A stretch of 64,000 nucleotides of DNA. Source: a virus. The stretch's first letter is position 1, and each line of letters begins with the position of its first letter. The notes below the pieces were generated by a model, which worked only from the letters and a program-made list of their open reading frames with translations, did no database searches and was not told the origin of the DNA. Both the position numbers and the translations under genes were made by a program. The DNA is taken from positions 1-64,000 of the IMG/VR virus record IMGVR_UViG_3300041809_000801. One strand, given 5' to 3'. Below are positions 8,135-24,919 of this stretch, piece by piece.

Positions 8135-10357
8135 TTAGACTGCTACCGCCTTCTTCTTCACAACCGGAGCCTTTACAGCGTCAGCCATGAATTCCGAAGC
8201 GATACGGTCGAGTTCGAAGGGCGTTCCAGCTTCCACCGAGAACACCACATCCGCTTCCTCTGCCTCATCGACCAACGTGCCACGTGCTTCCACATGGAGG
8301 TTGAGCAAATCGTAGAGGTTAGGCTTCTTGATGTTAGTGAACGCCTTGCCCAAAAGTTCAATGGTTCCACGAGTGGACGCCACGTTGTTTCCACCACGCC
8401 AGCTATAACGGTAGTTGTTCCCAGTGGTCATAGTCGCATCAACCCAAATGACCTTGCGGTCAACGAGGTCGATAATCATCGGGACAACAGAGGTTGCCTC
8501 AGTCGTCACATCAGCCCGGTCAACTACAGTACGCGGGTCATAGACCTCGCCAGACTGCGGCTTCTCGCGAAGCATAAATCCAGCGAAGCACTCCGGCACA
8601 TCGGCGAACTTCTGTCCGGTGAAGCTGTGAACAGTCTGAACGATGTAACGCACACCCGCCTTTAGGGCTTTCGCAATGTCCACGTCGATGAACTCACTCG
8701 CACCCTTCGGTGCCGAAGTGATGTCGCCGCTGTGAACTGCGAACTGCTCACGCAAGTTGTAGTATGTCACCGCGCCCTTGCTCACCCAGTTCTCGTCATA
8801 GGCACACGCCGAGAGGTCAAGGTCAACACGATTCGAGTGATACCCGTAGAAGTTTTCTTCAAGGTCGCTGTCGGCCTTGCCAGACTTGCCTTCCTTCCAC
8901 CAGATGAAGAAGCGGACGGTGCCCTTCTCATCGCCGAACGGCAGCTTGGAGCCACGCACTAAGGTGCGGAACGTCTTGCTGGCCGAACGCTGCGAGAACG
9001 GCAGGAGACAATCCTGCAACGCAGAGTCGATGTACACGTTGCCCAACTCAGGCAGGATAGAGAACCGCTCGACCAAAACTGCCTTGATACCTGTAGCAAT
9101 CTTGCGAGTGACCGCCTTGGACATATTCTCCAAGGTCTTCTCCAGAGACATGACCTTCGCCACGTTCCCCTTCGGGAACACAACGCGCATGTCAGTCTCA
9201 TCGCGGTGCTCGAAGTGAGCCAGTACCTGCAACAGCACCGGGGTCGAAACATCGTGAGCAACAGCCAAGAAAGCATCCACAACACGGCCCTGCTTCGCCG
9301 GGGTGCCAGCCTGACGCAGAACGTGATCGAGACGACGAGCGAACTCGCCGGGGCGCTGAGTCAACAACGTGGTTGCCTGAAGAGCGTTGCCACTACGAAC
9401 AGCAGCTTCAACATGGGTGCGGAAAGTTTCCACAGTCTCATTGTTGCGAAGCGTAGTGAAAGCCTTCAGCGTAGTCGGGAAACGCTTCGCGAATTCGCCG
9501 GGATGCAGACGCTCACCGAGACGAACCCAACGAGCCGGGAAGCGGAGCATATCCTCTTCCTTGCTTCCTGCGGCTTCCAACAAACCAAGCAAGAACTTAC
9601 GCTCCGAACGCTTGAAGCTGCGGAACTTGGAGTCATCCTTGAGCGACACATCGCCGTTGCTCATCGCGGTCGCCAGACGCAGAACGTCCGTGGCCGTCTT
9701 GAAGTACGGGGCAATGTCAATCGCCGTGCCCTGAAGCAAGGCCCCAACATACGCGAGATTTTCCTTATTTGGAATCGCGGGAAAGATGTCGAGCAACTTT
9801 CCATACCCGTTCTTAATCAGGGTGGACAACTCTTCCTTGTCCGACGCTGACAGAGACGTATTGGACGTAGCCAGACGAGTGGTCAATGTGTCGATGTCTT
9901 CCGTGGTAGCAAGGTCAACAACACGCAACTCCACCTTTTCATCTAGCGGCTCACGCTTGTCCTTGACATACTTCGGCAACCAGATGTTGTCCGGGTTGCC
10001 CGTGATGTCTACGACCAAAAAAGAGAAGTAGTGGCAGATGGCGTTGATGTACAATTCCGCGTCCGAAGCCTCGATAACCTGCTTCGGGAAGTTCGGGTAC
10101 ATCGGGCGGTAGTTCTTCACGCCCTTAGCTTCCTTGAGTGCGGTAAGAATTTCATCGAAGAGAAGCACAGCGGACGCTTCGCCCAAACGCAGGAAGCCCT
10201 TGATGGCGTCGGGGGACAGAGTATAGCCAAGTGCTTGAATGTTCAGATTGAACGTGGCAACAAGCGCCGGGTATGGCGTGGGGGCAGACACACGCTTCCC
10301 TGAAACTGGAAGCAAAATCTTGTTGAGGCGGCGAAGAACAATCGACTGTACATTCAT
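8135..10357 (-). CDS. ROT/TROVE-like repeat protein with C-terminal TerD domain
   Basis: 740 aa; helical part with TATDVLRLA, RLGERLHPGE, RPGEFARRLD; TerD-like C-terminus RVDLDLSA...HSGDITSAP.GASEFIDVD; strong SD AAGGAG. Confidence 0.75.
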   Translation of the reverse strand: MNVQSIVLRRLNKILLPVSGKRVSAPTPYPALVATFNLNIQALGYTLSPDAIKGFLRLGEASAVLLFDEILTALKEAKGVKNYRPMYPNFPKQVIEASDAELYINAICHYFSFLVVDITGNPDNIWLPKYVKDKREPLDEKVELRVVDLATTEDIDTLTTRLATSNTSLSASDKEELSTLIKNGYGKLLDIFPAIPNKENLAYVGALLQGTAIDIAPYFKTATDVLRLATAMSNGDVSLKDDSKFRSFKRSERKFLLGLLEAAGSKEEDMLRFPARWVRLGERLHPGEFAKRFPTTLKAFTTLRNNETVETFRTHVEAAVRSGNALQATTLLTQRPGEFARRLDHVLRQAGTPAKQGRVVDAFLAVAHDVSTPVLLQVLAHFEHRDETDMRVVFPKGNVAKVMSLEKTLENMSKAVTRKIATGIKAVLVERFSILPELGNVYIDSALQDCLLPFSQRSASKTFRTLVRGSKLPFGDEKGTVRFFIWWKEGKSGKADSDLEENFYGYHSNRVDLDLSACAYDENWVSKGAVTYYNLREQFAVHSGDITSAPKGASEFIDVDIAKALKAGVRYIVQTVHSFTGQKFADVPECFAGFMLREKPQSGEVYDPRTVVDRADVTTEATSVVPMIIDLVDRKVIWVDATMTTGNNYRYSWRGGNNVASTRGTIELLGKAFTNIKKPNLYDLLNLHVEARGTLVDEAEEADVVFSVEAGTPFELDRIASEFMADAVKAPVVKKKAVAV

Positions 10358-11551: not shown

Positions 11552-11640
11552 TGGCTAGGGAGGCCGGATTCGAACCGACAAGGAGCAATTACGCTCAACA
11601 GCTTCAAAGACTGCGGGGCCTACCAATGCCCGACTCCCCA
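11552..11640 (-). tRNA. tRNA-Gln(UUG) with long variable arm
   Basis: 89 nt; TGGGGAG/CTCCCTA-G-CCA, loop CT-TTG-AA, variable stem GAGCG-TAAT-TGCTC. Confidence 0.85.
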
Positions 11641-12148: not shown

Positions 12149-12745
12149 TCACTCCCAGTACGGTCCGATGTTTCGCCCGTACACTTCACTCAGTTTGGCA
12201 AAGTACGCTTTGGTCTTTATCTTACACATCCAATCGTCGCCCTTGCAGACAACCCCCTCCCACACTGGGTAGCGTCCTTCACGAATATCCTCGATGAACT
12301 GCTTGTTTAGATTACCCTCATACACTACTTCAGCAGAGTATGGTAGGTCTCCAAACACTTTAACGAACTGCCGGGGCTTCATCAACCCCCGCTTGAACAG
12401 GTACACATCAAAGAGACGAAGTTCTTTTGGCTCTCCTGCTATGTGCGACCCGGTGAAACTGCTCGGCCCGAAAAACTCAGTGAACGCCGTGATTCGCTGC
12501 GGCTGTCGCTCTACACTTTTCACGCGGCGGACAATTTCGTCGCCCATCTTCATGAAGAGTGGAATCGCCTCTCCGAAAATCTCGTCCGACTGGTCAAACA
12601 ACTGGGTACGAGTGCCGAACTTGAACCAGCCCTTCTTCGGGTTCCATTCCCATCGAAGGTTCGAACCGTCGTACTTATAGAAGGCGATGCACGGCTGACC
12701 AAACGGTGCCTTGGAGCTATTCTCGATGCTTGGGTACTGTTCCAT
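12149..12745 (-). CDS. Minimal ATP-dependent RNA ligase-like nucleotidyltransferase
   Basis: Motif I KYDGSN, III EFFG, IIIa FDV, IV EGVV, V KIK; about 198 aa. Confidence 0.75.
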   Translation of the reverse strand: MEQYPSIENSSKAPFGQPCIAFYKYDGSNLRWEWNPKKGWFKFGTRTQLFDQSDEIFGEAIPLFMKMGDEIVRRVKSVERQPQRITAFTEFFGPSSFTGSHIAGEPKELRLFDVYLFKRGLMKPRQFVKVFGDLPYSAEVVYEGNLNKQFIEDIREGRYPVWEGVVCKGDDWMCKIKTKAYFAKLSEVYGRNIGPYWE

Positions 12746-12796
12746 ACATCCCTTCAATCATTTTTGACTACCACTTCCCTAATCAGGGAGTGGTTT

Positions 12797-14484: not shown

Positions 14485-14567
14485 TGGAGCCACGGGAGGG
14501 ACTCGAACCCCCGATGTTTGTATGACGGTTTACGATACCGTTGCAGTCGCCGCTGAGCCACCGTGGC
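14485..14567 (-). tRNA. tRNA-Thr(CGU), atypical (long variable loop, weak D stem)
   Basis: 83 nt; loop AT-CGT-AA; variable region CATACAAACATC; GCC/GGC-U-CCA acceptor. Confidence 0.8.
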
Positions 14568-14580
14568 AAAATCAAATTGT

Positions 14581-14663
14581 TGGAGCCGGTGAAGGGAATC
14601 GAACCCCCGGTGTTTGTATGGCAGTTTACAAAACTGCTGCTGTCGCCACTGAGCCACACCGGC
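14581..14663 (-). tRNA. tRNA-Thr(UGU), atypical (long variable loop, weak D stem)
   Basis: 83 nt; loop TT-TGT-AA; variable region CATACAAACACC. Confidence 0.8.
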
Positions 14664-14933: not shown

Positions 14934-15329
14934 TTACAACTCGAAATCTTTTGCCAAAGTCACTCTCTTGCTCTGATGGTTCTTTGAAGCTTCGAATCGC
15001 AAACTTATCGACCGTCGTTTTCCAAACACCACCATTGGCACGAGGTAGCATTTATCCAACTCAGTACAATAAGCAGCTATGTGGTCTACCTGCCCATGAT
15101 ACCAATTTGTGCCTTTAGTAGAGACACTTTTTGCATCAACCACTACAGCACCGCTAATGATACGCCCGGTCTTTACTTGGACTCTTTCAAAAGTCCCCTC
15201 GTTATCAATGACCAAATCGTATCGCTCATTATCTCCCCATGGGGTTAAAACCACATACCCCCGCTTCAACAGAGCAGCCAATACAGCCGCTTCACTCACA
15301 TTACCTACACGCTTTGTATCTTGAGGCAT
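14934..15329 (-). CDS. PD-(D/E)XK homing endonuclease (I-Ssp6803I-like)
   Basis: TKRVGNVSEAAVLAALLKRGY.V..PWGDNERYDLV...RVQVKTGR; ATG 15329. Confidence 0.85.
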   Translation of the reverse strand: MPQDTKRVGNVSEAAVLAALLKRGYVVLTPWGDNERYDLVIDNEGTFERVQVKTGRIISGAVVVDAKSVSTKGTNWYHGQVDHIAAYCTELDKCYLVPMVVFGKRRSISLRFEASKNHQSKRVTLAKDFEL

Positions 15330-15349
15330 GTGGTCTAATACCCTAAACT

Positions 15350-15423
15350 TGGTGCGCCTTATAGGAGTCGAACCCATGTCTTCCGCTAATCGGGCGGAGG
15401 CTCTACCGTTAAGCAAAAGGCGC
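15350..15423 (-). tRNA. Atypical tRNA with GAU anticodon (C33, U37)
   Basis: Intact stems and CCA; anticodon loop CC-GAT-TA. Confidence 0.7.
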
Positions 15424-15658
15424 AAAAACTTTTCGACACTTGCACTCGGCGACGTTATCTCCGCCGAACCCGAAACAATCGGGGTTAGTTGCTATCAAAC
15501 TCTCGGCTTCCACTGGAGGAGGCGTCTCTTTCAACTTCTCCTGCAAATCTTCAAGCGCCGAGATTGCTTTCTTGTACGTGGATATTAAAGCACCCGCGTA
15601 CCCAAATCCGTCTCCGCGTACTGCATTTTTCTCAGCCCGGAGTTGACTGATAACTGCA

Positions 15659-16045
15659 TCAATGTCCATCGCTGTCCAACGCCTTCCGGGCTGCGGTGTC
15701 AAACTTCTCCGCATTCCAAAACCCTGCAAAAGAACCGCTGGAAGTGATGAGCAATTCACCTTTCGAAACTTTCAAACTGATGCCGAGGCTATCAACTCTT
15801 TGCTCCTCCCAATCTCGCGTCGAAGGCACATGTCCACAATCTTTCATGATGTGAACGATTGCTGCCTTGCGACCGAGAACCCCAAACAATTTTTCTGCCT
15901 CATCAACCCCACGTGAGTGGTGTCGCCAAAATCTGTGCAACGGACCAAACCGTTTGAATCCCGCATCCAACCAATGATTCACTTCTTCGCATCGGTCGCC
16001 GAGGATGCGTTCACAATCTCGACAATGCTCATCGAATGACGCCAA
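15659..16045 (-). CDS. His-rich hypothetical protein (DUF6915-like)
   Basis: HWLD...HRFWRHHSRG..EAEKLFG...HIMKDCGHVPS..DW; TTG 16045 after GGGGGAG. Confidence 0.55.
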   Translation of the reverse strand: MASFDEHCRDCERILGDRCEEVNHWLDAGFKRFGPLHRFWRHHSRGVDEAEKLFGVLGRKAAIVHIMKDCGHVPSTRDWEEQRVDSLGISLKVSKGELLITSSGSFAGFWNAEKFDTAARKALDSDGH

Positions 16046-16054
16046 AACTCCCCC

Positions 16055-16086
16055 TAAAAACACTAAAGCCGCCTGTTCAGGCGGCT
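16055..16086 (-). terminator. Attenuator terminator hairpin
   Basis: AGCCGCCT-GAAC-AGGCGGCT followed by TTAGTGTTTTT. Confidence 0.8.
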
Positions 16087-16110
16087 CATCGCATCTCAGA
16101 TTGAATCTTT

Positions 16111-16191
16111 TCAGATTCGTACGAAAACACGAGGCCGCAGAACGCTGGTTTGCGTTGTAGTGGTAATTCGTGTTTGGTTTGTGAGACGCAT
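16111..16191 (-). CDS. Thr-rich leader peptide MRLTNQTRITTTTQTSVLRPRVFVRI
   Basis: SD AAGGA 7 nt upstream; 7 Thr codons including tandem ACC ACT ACA ACG; followed by antiterminator/terminator. Confidence 0.8.
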   Translation of the reverse strand: MRLTNQTRITTTTQTSVLRPRVFVRI

Positions 16192-16230
16192 TGATGATTC
16201 CTTCTTGGTACCTTTCAGAAACTTAATGCT

Positions 16231-16406
16231 TGGTCGGTGGGGACAGACGTTAGCCTACCCCCACCGATGGAGCCGGTCGAATAGTTTCCCACTCTCCCGG
16301 CTTGGCCCCCGACCCAAGGTTGCCCTCAGGCCGGAGTTGGCACCCGGCTTAAGGTTTCCCTCGAACCGGGTATGGTGGGTGACTCAAGGTTTCCCTCTAA
16401 TCACCC
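16231..16406 (-). ncRNA. Tandem array of five NCCA-ended tRNA-minihelix-like hairpins
   Basis: Units 16373-16406, 16338-16371, 16303-16336, 16268-16301 (34 nt each) and 16231-16266 (36 nt), each separated by 1 nt. Confidence 0.85.
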
Positions 16407-16414
16407 TCATCTAC

Positions 16415-16443
16415 ATAATACCAGCGAAAGTTGGTTTTTGCAA
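16415..16443 (-). promoter_or_regulatory. sigma70-type promoter
   Basis: TTGCAA-17 bp-TATTAT; predicted start 2-3 nt before the first minihelix. Confidence 0.8.
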
Positions 16444-16541
16444 CTAACTTGTGAATTATTTTTCCACAGCTTTATGGAAAAATGTCTGTGGGGTGAGTAT
16501 CCCACCCCCTAATCGGACATGAAACCAGACATCGTGTCCGA

Positions 16542-16958
16542 TTAGGTGGCGCTCAAAGTCCCAAGGACAGGAGCCGCTGGATGAAACGGTGTTGTAATGG
16601 TAGCACAATTCGACGGGGCAGAATTTGCAGCAGTGTTTGCGGTCGGGGCTGCTTCCACATCGTAACTGTACTGAGTCGTTGGGCTCACTGTGTTGTCCAA
16701 ATATTGCGTAGCCGAGGGGACGGCGACAGTTCCCAACACAGTCCAACCGGCTGATGCAGCCAGCGTTGAAGGACAAGTTCCGGCGATACGGTAAACAGCC
16801 AGCAAGCAAGTATTCGTGGATGTGCAGGAAGTGTCGGTGACCGGAACAGTCACAGAGCTAGTTGCTGCCCCCGGCAGATTGGTTGTTTGAGCATGAACTG
16901 ACGATATGGTCAAACCGAAAACCATCAGCAGTGCGGTTGAAAGAAAAAGTTTCTTCAT
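16542..16958 (-). CDS. Secreted FN3-like beta-sandwich protein
   Basis: Signal peptide MKKLFLSTALL..VHAQ; VYR...YLDNTV..TQYSYDVEA. Confidence 0.65.
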   Translation of the reverse strand: MKKLFLSTALLMVFGLTISSVHAQTTNLPGAATSSVTVPVTDTSCTSTNTCLLAVYRIAGTCPSTLAASAGWTVLGTVAVPSATQYLDNTVSPTTQYSYDVEAAPTANTAANSAPSNCATITTPFHPAAPVLGTLSAT

Positions 16959-16971
16959 GTGTAGCTCCTTT

Positions 16972-17409
16972 TTATGTGGCGTGCAAAGTTCCAATAACAG
17001 GTGGAGTGGGAACAAACAACGTAGCGGGAATGGGTACAGTTACTGTGTTCGAGGGAACGCTCGTAGCTCCCGAGGCGTCCACGCTTTCAACATAGTAAGT
17101 ATACGTATTGCCCTCTACAACAGTTGAATCAGTGTAGGCGACAAGTGTTACAGGTGTGGCATTCAACAAACCACCAGTTGGTGAACGATAAACGTTGTAA
17201 CCGGCAACAGGGTCCCAACATGGGTCGGAGGCCGCAATTAGTTGTGTGGTGCATGTGGGTAAATTAGCCGAGTTGACTGGAGCATTCCAAGTCAAACCAA
17301 CCCCGTACCCTGTTACCCCTTTAGGAAGTGCGACAGTTGACTGTGCCTGTGCGGTGAGCCCACACAAGAACAGAACCATTAAATATGAACGAAGCCCCAT
17401 GCAGTCCAC
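16972..17409 (-). CDS. Secreted FN3-like protein
   Basis: LTWNAP...GYNVYRS...YTDSTV..GNTYTYYVESVD...S.PSN. Confidence 0.7.
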   Translation of the reverse strand: MDCMGLRSYLMVLFLCGLTAQAQSTVALPKGVTGYGVGLTWNAPVNSANLPTCTTQLIAASDPCWDPVAGYNVYRSPTGGLLNATPVTLVAYTDSTVVEGNTYTYYVESVDASGATSVPSNTVTVPIPATLFVPTPPVIGTLHAT

Positions 17410-17916: not shown

Positions 17917-17994
17917 TGGTGCCCCCGGTGGGACTCGAACCCACGACTCGCAGAAATTTAGAGTTTCCGGTTCTACCAACTGAACTACAGGGGC
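17917..17994 (-). tRNA. Amber-suppressor tRNA (CUA)
   Basis: GGAAA-CT-CTA-AA-TTTCT anticodon arm, canonical D/T arms, 7-nt variable loop, A73, CCA. Confidence 0.88.
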
Positions 17995-20835: not shown

Positions 20836-21354
20836 TTACTCTCCCTTCCGTGAGAACGTCGTGATAACCATGGACTGAGCCGGTGAGGTCTTCTGCTCGT
20901 CCGCCTTCTGGCCCTTCATCGTGAACTTGAGGTTGCGGCCATCGTACTTGTTCTTGACACCGCTGAACGTGTGTGGCGATGGTGACTGAGCATCGAGCCA
21001 CACATCCCAGTTAACGACCACTGGAAGATTTTCATCCATGGCCTTGTAAATGGTGTACTCCCAATCGGGGTACTTTTCCTTCCAGTACACCATGTCCTTG
21101 TTCGCCCACGTCCAAGCGTCGAGATTGTAGTAGGTGCTCGACCAGTAGAGAAACGTGCGGTTGGGCTCAACACCGAGGCTTAACGAATTCTCAACCGGAC
21201 CGTAAAGCTGGTCGTCGTTCGGCTTCTTGATGAGGATGATGTATCCGGCCTTAGCAACCTCCATGAGGCGGTTGTTCCGTGCCACGTCCTCGTCAGTAGC
21301 GACAAGGGGCTCCTGCGGCTCGATGAGACGCACAACTTCATTAGGCTGCTGCAT
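20836..21354 (-). CDS. Hypothetical protein
   Basis: 172 aa, SD GGAGG. Confidence 0.65.
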   Translation of the reverse strand: MQQPNEVVRLIEPQEPLVATDEDVARNNRLMEVAKAGYIILIKKPNDDQLYGPVENSLSLGVEPNRTFLYWSSTYYNLDAWTWANKDMVYWKEKYPDWEYTIYKAMDENLPVVVNWDVWLDAQSPSPHTFSGVKNKYDGRNLKFTMKGQKADEQKTSPAQSMVITTFSRKGE

Positions 21355-21685
21355 AGCAAACCTCCGGCGACCAGAGGCGATAGGTGCCCATGGCTTTGCG
21401 CTGCTTTTTGTTTTGGATTGGGTAGGTGGAGACCGCCGTCAAGCCGAGGTCATTGTCAGGCTCATAGAAAGCCTCGTAGTCAATGCCATAGCGTTGGAGC
21501 CGTTCAATGACGGCCTCAAGTTCTGACTTGTCGGGAACTCCGATAAGAACGACCGATGGAGTCTCGGTGCGTTCGGAAAGGCGGGATGCCATCTCAAAGG
21601 TGGCGTGGTTGGACTGCACGATTTGTTGAGCGAGACTGATGTCAGTCCGCACGAAAACGAAAGTGTGGTTGCTTACCTAGTGCAT
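21341..21685 (-). CDS. Pth2-like peptidyl-tRNA hydrolase with in-frame TAG at codon 3
   Basis: ATG CAC TAG then VSNHTFVFVRTDISLAQQIVQSNHA...VVLIGV...FYEPD...GLTAV..YP; SD AGGAG before ATG 21685. Confidence 0.7.
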
Positions 21686-22886: not shown

Positions 22887-23034
22887 CTTTTGACTCCTTG
22901 GTCTCGGTCAAATCTACGCGAAAATATGTGGCCTCATCCTCCGTCCAATGCACAGACATGGACGGGTAGTGAGAATTCTCAAGTCGCGTTCTTGTTCCAA
23001 CTCTACGAGACATATTGACGCCCAAAAATCGGTA

Positions 23035-23326
23035 GGGGTCGCTTTTGGCGACCCCATCCTAGTGAACTATTCTTTCACAGAGTCAGCCCACGAACTCCGA
23101 GTAGCTGGTTATTAAGCAGCCGCTGCAAGTGCCATTGGTTCGGCAGATGTTATTTTTCCCACCATATAACGGATAGCGAGAGAACGAGTTGTTGACGGCT
23201 TCCTTCCAAAACATCTGTCGAAATCTTGGCGGGCCCATAGATTTTATTGGTGGACCCGGTGGGAATCAAACCCACGTCCAAATGCTGGTTAGAACGTCTT
23301 CAGCCTCTTGCGAAGCACACAACCAT
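23035..23326 (-). ncRNA. ssrA: Circularly permuted (two-piece) tmRNA
   Basis: Acceptor piece ends GTGGG-TTTGATT-CCCAC-CGGGTCC-ACCA at 23248; 11-nt spacer; coding piece starts GGGCCCG at 23236 (G3.U70); tag AEPMALAAAA** at 23144-23109; outer ends approximate. Confidence 0.88.
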
Positions 23327-23332
23327 ATACCA

Positions 23333-23361
23333 ATAATACCCGTAGTCGGGAAATTCTGCAA
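23333..23361 (-). promoter_or_regulatory. sigma70-type promoter for tmRNA
   Basis: TTGCAG-17 bp-TATTAT. Confidence 0.7.
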
Positions 23362-23739: not shown

Positions 23740-23988
23740 CTACTCCTCTTTTTTCACTTCTGTTCCGTGAACAAATGCCCGGTGCATAGACACCAACTGT
23801 ACAAGCGGCCAAATGAGAATAGTGAAGAATGAGTATAGGTGGATGACGAATCCAAACGCCGGGTCTTGGTCTATCCTTTGTCGATAATCAATCTCGATGA
23901 TTGCCTGATTCACACGCCATGAGAGCCACATCCCGAGGAGCCAAATGACCAGAGCAACGTACCAGCCAAACAAAGGTATAGTCATCAT
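23740..23988 (-). CDS. Small membrane protein
   Basis: Two hydrophobic helices. Confidence 0.5.
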   Translation of the reverse strand: MMTIPLFGWYVALVIWLLGMWLSWRVNQAIIEIDYRQRIDQDPAFGFVIHLYSFFTILIWPLVQLVSMHRAFVHGTEVKKEE

Positions 23989-24788
23989 AGAAAGTCCACA
24001 TCCACATCCTGTACGTTCATATCAGTACCACCCCTCTGCCATTTGACGTGGAGACGCCATTTAGCTCCCGGCTTAATCCAAGTTGCTGCTGCGGGAAATT
24101 CTTCCAACATGTGTTCAATGTTCTCACGCTTCATGATGACGCCCTTCATCCCGTCAGACTTTCTGCGAACCTTAGCCCCAACCTCACCGGGCTTCGCGAG
24201 AGAAGCACTGATTTCATAAATGCGATTCGGATCGTAAACACAAATCTGGTCGCCATCGAGCAGTTTGCGAATTCCCTGTCCCTTGTACCACACCGCATTC
24301 CACTTAGACTTCAATACTGCCGTTAGCCTCTTTGTAGCCTCAACTCGATTCTTTTTTGCCAAGTCAGGCTCATATCCATTCTTTATCCACCACTGCATCA
24401 TCGTATTCGGAGCGCCGAAATTGATAGTCTCGTAGTTGGGAATGTCCAAGTAGTACGTTCTAATCCCGGCTCCGCCGAAGTTGAATTCCTTGGCGATGGC
24501 TTTCTTGGTGGTGAAGTATACTCCGTACCCTAGATGATGTACGGGGGCAGGTACGTGGGGGTGCTTTGTACTATAGTCTTGGTATCCAGAGTAGCCATTC
24601 TGAATATCCCCCGAGCCTTCCTCACCCTCGAATATCTTGAAACCCTCGCGGTCGATGACCTCACGGCGGTCATTTGTGGTGCCGTGGTAAACCGGACCGA
24701 AGTAACCACGGTCTTGTGCTTCCTGCAAGCTGATGACATGGCTGCTGGGAAGAGCGACTTTTGATAGGAACCCTGACTTAAATTTCAT
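23985..24788 (-). CDS. ADP-ribosyltransferase-fold protein (putative)
   Basis: VYHGT...LGYGVYFTT...AKEF pattern typical of ART-like domains in phage polyvalent/virion proteins. Confidence 0.5.
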   Translation of the reverse strand: MKFKSGFLSKVALPSSHVISLQEAQDRGYFGPVYHGTTNDRREVIDREGFKIFEGEEGSGDIQNGYSGYQDYSTKHPHVPAPVHHLGYGVYFTTKKAIAKEFNFGGAGIRTYYLDIPNYETINFGAPNTMMQWWIKNGYEPDLAKKNRVEATKRLTAVLKSKWNAVWYKGQGIRKLLDGDQICVYDPNRIYEISASLAKPGEVGAKVRRKSDGMKGVIMKRENIEHMLEEFPAAATWIKPGAKWRLHVKWQRGGTDMNVQDVDVDFL

Positions 24789-24919
24789 CTGTCCCCCTTC
24801 CAAACTTCACGAAATTTGGGCTTCAACGCTTCAATGTTCCCACTCACGGTCAACGTTCCATACGTACTCAAAGTATCCTCCCACGAATTCGGTTCAGGGT
24901 CGCGAGGCTGTAAACTTCA

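Follow-up and report, generated by a model that had tools for sequence, protein, structure and literature searches.

The window analysed here is a stretch of 64,000 nucleotides (nt; positions 1 to 64,000) of the IMG/VR record IMGVR_UViG_3300041809_000801, an 88.9-kb record of an uncultured wetland giant phage, and it carries on its minus strand an array of five tandem hairpin-N-CCA units (16406-16231) where a regulated tRNA operon begins. The units could be read directly from the minus strand, with the one-base spacers that the initial annotation, made from the letters alone, had described. Unit 1 (16406-16373; GGGU.../...ACCC-A-CCA) has an A.G mismatch at position 9 of its 13-position stem, unit 2 (16371-16338; ACCC.../...GGGU-G-CCA) begins with an A1-U72 pair and has G at position 73, unit 3 (16336-16303; CUCC.../...GGGG-G-CCA) begins with C1-G72 and U2.G71, unit 4 (16301-16268; GCCGG.../...CCGGC-U-CCA) has U73, and unit 5 (16266-16231; CGGU.../...ACCG-A-CCA) combines C1-G72 with A73 on 14 pairs, one position more than the 13 of units 1 to 4. 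The tetraloops are GAAA, GAAA, GCAA, GAAA and UAAC in order, so that four of the five belong to the GNRA class, and the unpaired base before CCA is A, G, G, U and A. Because only one spacer base separates neighbours (16372, 16337, 16302 and 16267), units 1-4 recur every 35 bases. Homologous arrays were found in six other contigs, designated L066, L069, L077, L083, L093 and L116.

A consensus scan placed a promoter at 16443-16415 of the same strand (9/12 with the TG), consisting of a -35 TTGCAA (16443-16438), a 17-base spacer and an extended -10 TGG-TATTAT (16423-16415), and a leader of eight bases lies between this -10 and unit 1. The TTGCAA-17-TATTAT promoter named in the initial annotation was therefore present in the window, but among relatives only its extended -10 was kept: TGGTATTAT was invariant in all five distinct relatives, whereas the -35 was not. 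The distance from the extended -10 to the first hairpin was 8-10 bases; that hairpin is unit 1 in L083, L093, L077 and L066, and in L116 a small non-CCA hairpin stands between the extended -10 and the first unit. An A-rich block, CTGTGGAAAAATAATT (16454-16469, minus strand), about 35-50 bases upstream of the -10, recurs in L083, L093 and L116, with parts of it also in L077 and L066, and is possibly an UP-like element.

Downstream of unit 5, and again on the minus strand, a 39-base spacer beginning AGCAUUAAGUUUCUG (16192-16230) carries the Shine-Dalgarno sequence AAGGA (16203-16199) of a leader open reading frame (ORF). This spacer was near-identical in L069, L077, L083 and L093, with its core also found in L116, and it may contain an endonuclease site that would free unit 5. 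The leader ORF (16111-16191) has 26 codons, is rich in Thr with Gln and Ile in addition, and has a core, TRITTTTQTS, that was kept at the DNA level in L069, L077, L083, L093 and L116; towards its C terminus the peptide differed. It is followed by the intrinsic terminator of an attenuator (16056-16087), a 9-pair stem with 6 G-C pairs and a U-rich tail, which was kept with compensatory changes among relatives. The first gene past the attenuator encodes a DUF6915 protein (phrog_8143; 15659-16045, likely start TTG at 16045), and the operon then continues with two tRNA-Ile genes, five tRNA-Thr and two tRNA-Gln. In relatives, too, where the contig reaches that far, the array is followed by this ORF core, the terminator and a DUF6915 gene. 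The same phage has a second attenuator-controlled tRNA block, which carries no such array. Between the two tRNA-Ile genes of the first block we also noted a PD-(D/E)XK (PDDEXK_5) homing-endonuclease-like gene (14934-15425, minus strand), whose longest ORF overlaps the tRNA-Ile at 15350-15423.

Folding recovered the proposed hairpin in each of the five units, with energies of -18.5 kcal/mol (z -4.5) for unit 1, -20.3 (z -4.4) for unit 2, -23.6 (z -4.5) for unit 3, -20.2 (z -4.8) for unit 4 and -25.4 (z -5.0) for unit 5, and 0 of 200 shuffles were as stable as the real unit in every case. When the whole 221-nt stretch was folded, five separate hairpins were predicted (z -7.7). Set against the continuous helix of about 12 pairs that defines a minihelix, the units have 13-14 stem positions with 0-2 mismatches each, and every one ends in a single-stranded discriminator base and 3' CCA, which agrees with the earlier description of them as acceptor/T-arm-like minihelices with an encoded N-CCA. 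The 7-base T loop with its TPsiC consensus was absent from all five units, and the tetraloops found instead make them resemble tetraloop-capped model hairpins, not true T arms.

The array matched none of the known classes that we searched. ARAGORN and Rfam located 11 tRNAs in the window, all of them outside 16231-16407 (canonical tRNA, RF00005), and an Rfam search at E values up to 10 returned only noise in the array. Rfam 15 at gathering scores gave no family either, the best chance-level score over 16000-16520 being 19.7 bits against a cut-off of 40, so the match to a known Rfam family that had been named as counter-evidence was not found at either setting. A scan for hairpin-NCCA units across the full 88.9-kb record found no further unit with at most one mismatch, only weak two-mismatch matches elsewhere, a three-unit CCA/GNRA descriptor matched the array alone within the record (0.00 expected in shuffles), and a covariance model built from the units matched nothing else there. 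All sense-strand reading frames across the array contained stops in every contig, and an antisense ORF at 16160-16447 (95 codons) was broken in all frames in the relatives L077 and L066; the array has no coding potential. A CRISPR array was considered and rejected, the units abutting through one-base spacers and differing from each other.

Five of the six relatives were found by a pattern combining the constant loop-proximal part of the units with CCA, which gave 47 matches in Joint Genome Institute (JGI) metagenomes, five true and 42 by chance; L116, an IMG/VR contig, was found by a pattern derived from the leader ORF. The five unit types of the window all recur in L083 and L093. The arrays of L077 and L069 contain types 1-3 and a 29-base remnant of the rest, which in L077 occupies 1850-1880 in place of units 4 and 5. 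The order is altered in L066, which has type 1, an extra type, types 3 and 2 and the start of type 4, and L116 has, beside its small non-CCA hairpin, an additional type that is Pro-like, both type 4 and type 5, and fragments that have degenerated. In the latter contig (6869-7007, minus strand), about 75 extra bases lie between the last unit and the leader and hold CCA-less fragments resembling unit halves.

Searches in wider collections returned little beyond these contigs. The pattern GGGNRACY...CCA had no match in IMG/VR and only 17 chance matches, with at most 10/13 pairs, in 185,579 prokaryote genomes. In IMG/VR, the three-unit CCA/GNRA descriptor found heptamer repeats only, a doubled GAGGGAAACCTT pattern found only chance matches or simple repeats, and a pattern for the junction of the Thr and Pro units found L116 only, together with coding-sequence noise. 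No near relative of the phage was present among 50,697 GenBank phages. The two IMG/VR records, the window's own and L116, are fragments estimated at 29% and 15% completeness, from which we take both phages to be probably about 300 kb in size.

Across 15 distinct 35-base units from these arrays, 92.8% of cells were paired, compared with 67.1% in partner shuffles (0 of 500 shuffles reached the observed value), and 12 of 13 pairs had changed on both sides. When the partner was slid by one column as a control, pairing fell to 52-58%. Compensatory change between orthologues was found at 1-5 stem positions per unit type. Unit 1 (orthologues in L083/L093, L077 and L066) showed it at four stem positions and unit 2 at five among four orthologues; all four orthologues of unit 3 were fully paired, with A as N73 in the relatives; in unit 4, GCCGG/CCGGC-U was invariant in L083 and L116 while positions 6-10 varied; and the orthologues of unit 5 (L083/L093, L116) had changed pairs and loops, L077 keeping a remnant. 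The claim that geometry is kept while sequence diverges was thus borne out by orthologues. Loss of CCA or of pairing among homologues, another kind of counter-evidence that the initial annotation had named, was not seen in the units compared, with CCA variable in 0/12 columns and pairing as given above, although some units in relatives have been lost or have degenerated. Pairing of the base at -1 with N73, seen in units 2, 4 and 5, was dropped as a feature, as it is not kept in relatives.

These data bear on whether the units are simply functionless relics of internally deleted tRNA genes. The tRNA-like U8-A9-G10 that follows the 7-base acceptor strand is kept in the 5' strands of unit 1 and of the Thr-like unit of L116, which suggests that the units arose from tRNA genes through internal deletion, and the varying number of units and the presence of remnants would also suit relics. 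Compensatory changes, an unvaried CCA, the 35-base register and 92.8% pairing, however, amount to purifying selection on structure. Covariation has therefore largely refuted a purely relic nature, which we regard as highly improbable.

To locate this constraint within the units, we compared orthologues over the columns of the four best-sampled unit types. Only 2/32 columns were variable in the top four pairs, against 35/48 in the mid-stem (positions 5-10 and their partners; Fisher p = 1.9e-9), and the remaining zones had 3/24 variable columns in the three loop-proximal pairs, 2/16 in the loop, 1/4 at N73 and 0/12 in CCA. These results indicated that the mid-stem is constrained in pairing only, while sequence itself is conserved at the acceptor end and in a common GG-GNRA-CC handle. 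A fixed acceptor end beside a free mid-stem would be expected from a factor that recognises each unit type specifically by its acceptor end; folding alone would not demand conservation of the acceptor-end sequence, nor, as far as known, would RNase P.

We then compared these acceptor ends with tRNAs. All 15 tRNA genes found by ARAGORN in the record encode CCA. Unit 4 matched the phage's own tRNA-Thr genes at 9/9 positions over the top four pairs and U73, as the initial annotation had noticed. For unit 1 the nearest phage tRNA top was that of tRNA-Ile (7/9), and units 2, 3 and 5 had no matching tRNA in this 29%-complete record. The labels Val for unit 1 and Trp for unit 2 go back to E. coli tRNA sequences and stand here as one option each, beside Ile for the former and Gln for the latter: the tRNA-Gln of the relative L116 has A1-U72/G73 as unit 2 does, so that unit 2 could be Gln-like equally well as Trp-like. 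C1-G72/A73 is the signature of bacterial tRNA-Pro. The Pro label for unit 5, which goes back to this textbook signature, agrees with its C1-G72, G2, G3 and A73, and by the same comparison unit 3 (C1-G72) would resemble tRNA-Pro less closely. Several tRNAs of the window are unusually long, one Gln of 89 nt (11552-11640) and two Thr of 83 nt (14485-14567 and 14581-14663), and a tRNA with a CUA anticodon lies at 17917-17994. The CUA anticodon is of the amber suppressor type, and L116 has two CUA tRNAs upstream of its array.

Conserved top pairs together with N73 make up the classical acceptor identity set, and synthetic minihelices are known substrates of aminoacyl-tRNA synthetases, so the units might act on these enzymes as substrates or competitors, serving as an amino-acid sink, as an anticodon-less carrier, or to tune the charging that the leader senses. 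That unit 4 copies tRNA-Thr and that the leader senses Thr, Gln and Ile would fit such a role. Yet no unit has G3.U70 or G-1:C73, the marks of enzymes that charge minihelices well; the synthetases for Thr, Pro, Ile, Val, Gln and Trp rely heavily on anticodon recognition; and a competitor of threonyl-tRNA synthetase would starve the phage's own translation. We therefore consider a role in charging quite unlikely.

We further searched public sequencing data and found the array stretch in 17 runs, four of which are wetland metatranscriptomes from four studies. Comparison of these four over 15400-17100 gave RNA contigs covering 16141-16336 at a depth of 17.9, 16147-16326 at 33.7, 15881-16336 at 12.2 (a single contig that spans the terminator) and 16204-16388 at 2.9, so that units 3-5 were joined to the leader in RNA contigs, whereas 16389-17100 was covered in none of the four metatranscriptomes. 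RNA contigs of the DUF6915 gene had depths of 2.3-4, and in two runs depth fell across the terminator from 18-34 to 2-4, about 8-fold. DNA carry-over, being even along the sequence, would not produce such a profile, which fits a strong promoter at 16415-16443 with termination at the attenuator; therefore the main product of this promoter in these samples was the array-plus-leader RNA. The evidence consists of assembled contigs, and strand, ends and small RNAs lie outside what they show. At least two further related strains were present in the same RNA runs.

Two of the RNA contigs (X2 and X6) end at 16336, the first base of unit 3. We considered these ends as RNase P cuts and rejected them as a k-mer artefact. 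At N73 of unit 3 (16306) the window has G where a co-occurring relative has A, and 16336 lies exactly 30 bases from this variant, so the ends are as expected from branching of an assembly graph with k = 31, the value that we take Logan to have used; the span of a unit from +1 to N73 is also 31 nt. The contig ends at 16141 and 16147 likewise adjoin variant sites.

RNase P is the candidate enzyme for release of the units. Beyond the window, between tRNA genes, the phage encodes a bacterial class A RNase P RNA of its own (165 bits, E 5e-52; 88314-88642 of G000, 5314-5642 of L118), which is without about 43 consensus positions of the specificity domain (P13/P14 region) and keeps the L15 CGGGU with the GGU motif that pairs with substrate CCA. 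As for substrate features, the units present RCCA in four of five cases and UCCA in unit 4, with U or A at -1, and bacterial RNase P, according to one report (PMC12710915), relies on a 3' RCCA when its substrates are small hairpins. Another (PMC2190699) describes how RNase P separates closely spaced tRNAs in polycistronic transcripts and how exonucleases finish the 3' ends. RNase P, either the host's or one built on the phage's own RNA, would cut 5' of each unit. Given the one-base spacers, a single cut would serve two units, maturing the 5' end of one and leaving its upstream neighbour with N-CCA plus one extra base, which 3' exonucleases would trim.

The phage RNase P RNA also raises the possibility that the units are a sponge for, or partner of, end-maturation enzymes: as product-like hairpins of high affinity they might occupy the host's RNase P or CCA-adding enzyme, or aid the phage's reduced RNase P RNA. 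Its missing specificity-domain positions beside a retained CCA-binding motif would agree with this, as would the loop-proximal GG-GNRA-CC handle common to the unit types. Five distinct and individually conserved acceptor tops have no reason in such a scheme, however, and blockade of RNase P would stop maturation of the phage's many tRNAs, making this explanation very unlikely.

A stronger competitor is a module for processing or stability that acts in cis, in which t-element-like signals recruit RNase P to the leader 5' end and the hairpins are by-products. Such a module would set the 5' end and half-life of the leader RNA, or link the operon with the enzymes of tRNA processing. The array lies between promoter and tRNA-operon attenuator in every relative seen, the dependence of hairpin substrates on RCCA reported in PMC12710915 would explain the conserved CCA, and units 3-5 and the leader are joined in RNA contigs. 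Against this, one cleavage site would suffice, yet five units in the window and three to five in relatives are kept; RNase P is not known to need a fixed sequence of the top four pairs and N73 beside a free mid-stem; and the phage's other tRNA block under attenuator control does without an array. Considering both sides, we hold a function in cis alone to be unlikely.

The reading that we favour, with a probability of roughly 0.4, is that the units are mimics of tRNA 3' ends, released by RNase P, that act as decoys. The array encodes five anticodon-less tRNA minihelices of about 34-36 nt each, conserved in structure and present in environmental RNA as part of a longer transcript, from which they would be released by cleavage. 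In each, a helix of 13-14 positions would replace the stacked acceptor and T stems and a tetraloop the T loop. Placed first in a leader RNA that starts from the array's own extended -10 promoter and in most cases stops at the Thr/Gln/Ile-sensing attenuator, the minihelices would be made constitutively and the spare tRNAs downstream on demand. Free minihelices would offer five acceptor ends, one Thr-like, two Pro-like, one Ile/Val-like and one Gln/Trp-like. Having no decoding ability, a minihelix must act through factors that read acceptor ends, so the units would mimic uncharged tRNA 3' ends in trans, as decoys or competing substrates for host proteins of this kind. Candidate targets are toxSAS pyrophosphokinases (FaRel2, CapRel) and MenT/AbiEii nucleotidyltransferases, from which real tRNAs would thereby be shielded.

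Two kinds of phage-defence toxin that read the acceptor end take such minimal substrates in vitro. According to the FaRel2 paper, FaRel2 pyrophosphorylates a synthetic minihelix and selects tRNA-Gly and tRNA-Thr via pairs 1-72, 2-71, 4-69 and 5-68; unit 4 has the required G1-C72, C2-G71, G4-C69 and G5-C68, and its orthologues show no change in these pairs. MenT1 extends an isolated acceptor stem that ends in CCA. A review of phage countermeasures (November 2026; PMC13728456) presents only full-length tRNAs as answers to tRNA-directed defences. Acceptor-end toxins that take minihelices, the logic of the operon and this gap in the review together led us to rank decoy-like mimics acting in trans first. 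We more tentatively consider that the whole operon may be a sense-and-respond counter-defence system, in which a constitutive panel of identity-specific decoys, absorbing host immune toxins that modify or cleave acceptor ends, is backed by a leader peptide that senses failure to decode Thr, Gln or Ile and then releases DUF6915 and replacement tRNAs; this extension seems to us possible but doubtful.

Several points weigh against decoys. Decoys would have to be abundant to rival the cellular tRNA pool. The libraries behind the RNA contigs would not keep 35-nt RNAs, and unit-length species, cuts and 3' ends were not seen. Conservation of N-CCA, taken alone, would also follow if RNase P had to cleave in cis. 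Among tRNAs visible in the record, unit 4 alone has a match, with a weak one for unit 1, and units 2, 3 and 5 were assigned through general rules. Units have been lost or are degenerate in relatives, L077 retaining three and a remnant and L116 three and fragments, and the family is narrow, with only L116 beside the window's own record in IMG/VR and five further contigs from metagenomes.

The DUF6915 protein encoded after the attenuator matched Pfam PF21866 (E 6e-8) and PHROG phrog_8143; its homologues after the array in relatives were 70-90% identical, and the homologues P0002 and P0003 80-90% identical. More distant relatives at 51% identity (L033-L035, including two complete phages) lie in tRNA islands without minihelices; there, at 10001-10327, the gene sits inside the tRNA islands of unrelated large phages. 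Residues H13, C14, D16, C17, H43, H48, H71, D75 and C76 are invariant, and this set of His, Cys and Asp suggests a putative metal site. Its AlphaFold model had a pLDDT of 85; Foldseek against the PDB returned nothing at E up to 0.001, the best Z from VIA-align was 4.6 and the ESM Atlas gave unnamed clusters only. Pfam HD and HD_4 had no match anywhere in the record.

With DUF6915 as protein partner, the layout of promoter, five units of about 35 nt, terminator and small conserved protein gene recalls a type III-like RNA antitoxin array. The units, however, are not sequence repeats (mean column identity 71%, with differing stems) but plain hairpins ending in CCA, and a translated leader ORF stands between array and terminator. 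DUF6915 itself matches no PADLOC model, those of the ToxN/AbiQ type included, and occurs in the tRNA islands of other phages without an array. Taken together, we judge an antitoxin array to be extremely unlikely.

Other features were recorded along the phage sequence. Pfam domains of CCA-adding enzyme, PTH2 and TROVE were absent from the 88.9-kb fragment, which means little as the record covers only about 29% of the genome. At 8135-10357 and 21341-21652 of the window we found only PHROGs families of unknown function (phrog_33734, phrog_34073), and no TROVE or PTH2 by Pfam or six-frame search. A permuted, two-piece tmRNA (RF04321, 59 bits) lies at 23112-23305 on the minus strand, where ARAGORN gave a tmRNA at 23021-23340. 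A 202-amino-acid ORF in the tRNA island (12149-12757, minus strand) matches the PHROG RNA ligase family phrog_548 (E 1e-9), and a 272-amino-acid ORF (23985-24803, minus strand) gave a weak, sub-threshold match to ART-PolyVal, an ADP-ribosyltransferase family (E 4e-4, 21.7 bits against a cut-off of 31.2).

Laboratories have worked with acceptor-stem minihelices from the late 1980s onwards, and these are central to the "operational RNA code" and to ideas on the origin of tRNA. Our search of the published literature found no natural minihelix gene or array, which together with the lack of an Rfam family agrees with the earlier statement that no such array had been described. What the data establish is that a phage lineage maintains a panel of minihelices under selection and that this panel is present in environmental RNA. 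If the operon does work as a sense-and-respond counter-defence system, natural minihelices would be a new class of phage anti-defence RNA, and the array would provide the first genes for the minimal tRNA on which studies of the origin of the code have long relied. As decoys, they would add an anticodon-free RNA strategy to the replacement tRNAs and repair enzymes that counter tRNA-targeting immunity, and their conserved acceptor tops would indicate which tRNA species the defences of soil bacteria attack. Short self-folding units of this kind might also serve as specific inhibitors of toxSAS- and MenT-type toxins.

Synthetic minihelices, which are used with RNase P, the CCA-adding enzyme, synthetases, FaRel2 and MenT1 and are in some cases capped by a GAAA tetraloop, share with the units described here the helix of about 12-13 pairs, the discriminator base and the single-stranded CCA, but they are laboratory constructs, whereas the units are natural tandem genes with one-base spacers, covariation and environmental RNA. 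The full-length tRNAs with which phages oppose defence, such as T5 tRNA-Lys against PARIS and tRNA-Tyr against Retron-Eco7 and Septu PtuAB (PMC13728456), are like the array in being products of tRNA islands that plausibly answer an attack on tRNA, and the array even shares its operon with spare Ile, Thr and Gln tRNAs; those tRNAs, however, replace or outnumber the target and decode, while minihelices without an anticodon arm mimic the acceptor end only. Type III toxin-antitoxin loci (toxI, and the pseudo-ToxI of phages) likewise have a promoter-driven tandem array, with units of about 35 nt, ahead of a terminator and a gene for a protein. ToxI, which is processed into single units, offers a precedent for RNA mimicry by phages, but its units are identical repeats forming pseudoknots bound by ToxN, in contrast to the differing tRNA-like CCA hairpins found here, whose neighbour lies outside the ToxN family. 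Further tRNA-like elements are the t-elements of plant mitochondria and haloarchaea, mascRNA, the RNase P-processed C4 RNA of P1 and P7 and two stable RNAs of the T4 tRNA cluster. In these, too, an acceptor-like helix is recognised by tRNA enzymes, and some are phage-encoded and located in tRNA clusters, but none of them is known to be a tandem panel of minimal N-CCA hairpins with distinct, conserved tops.

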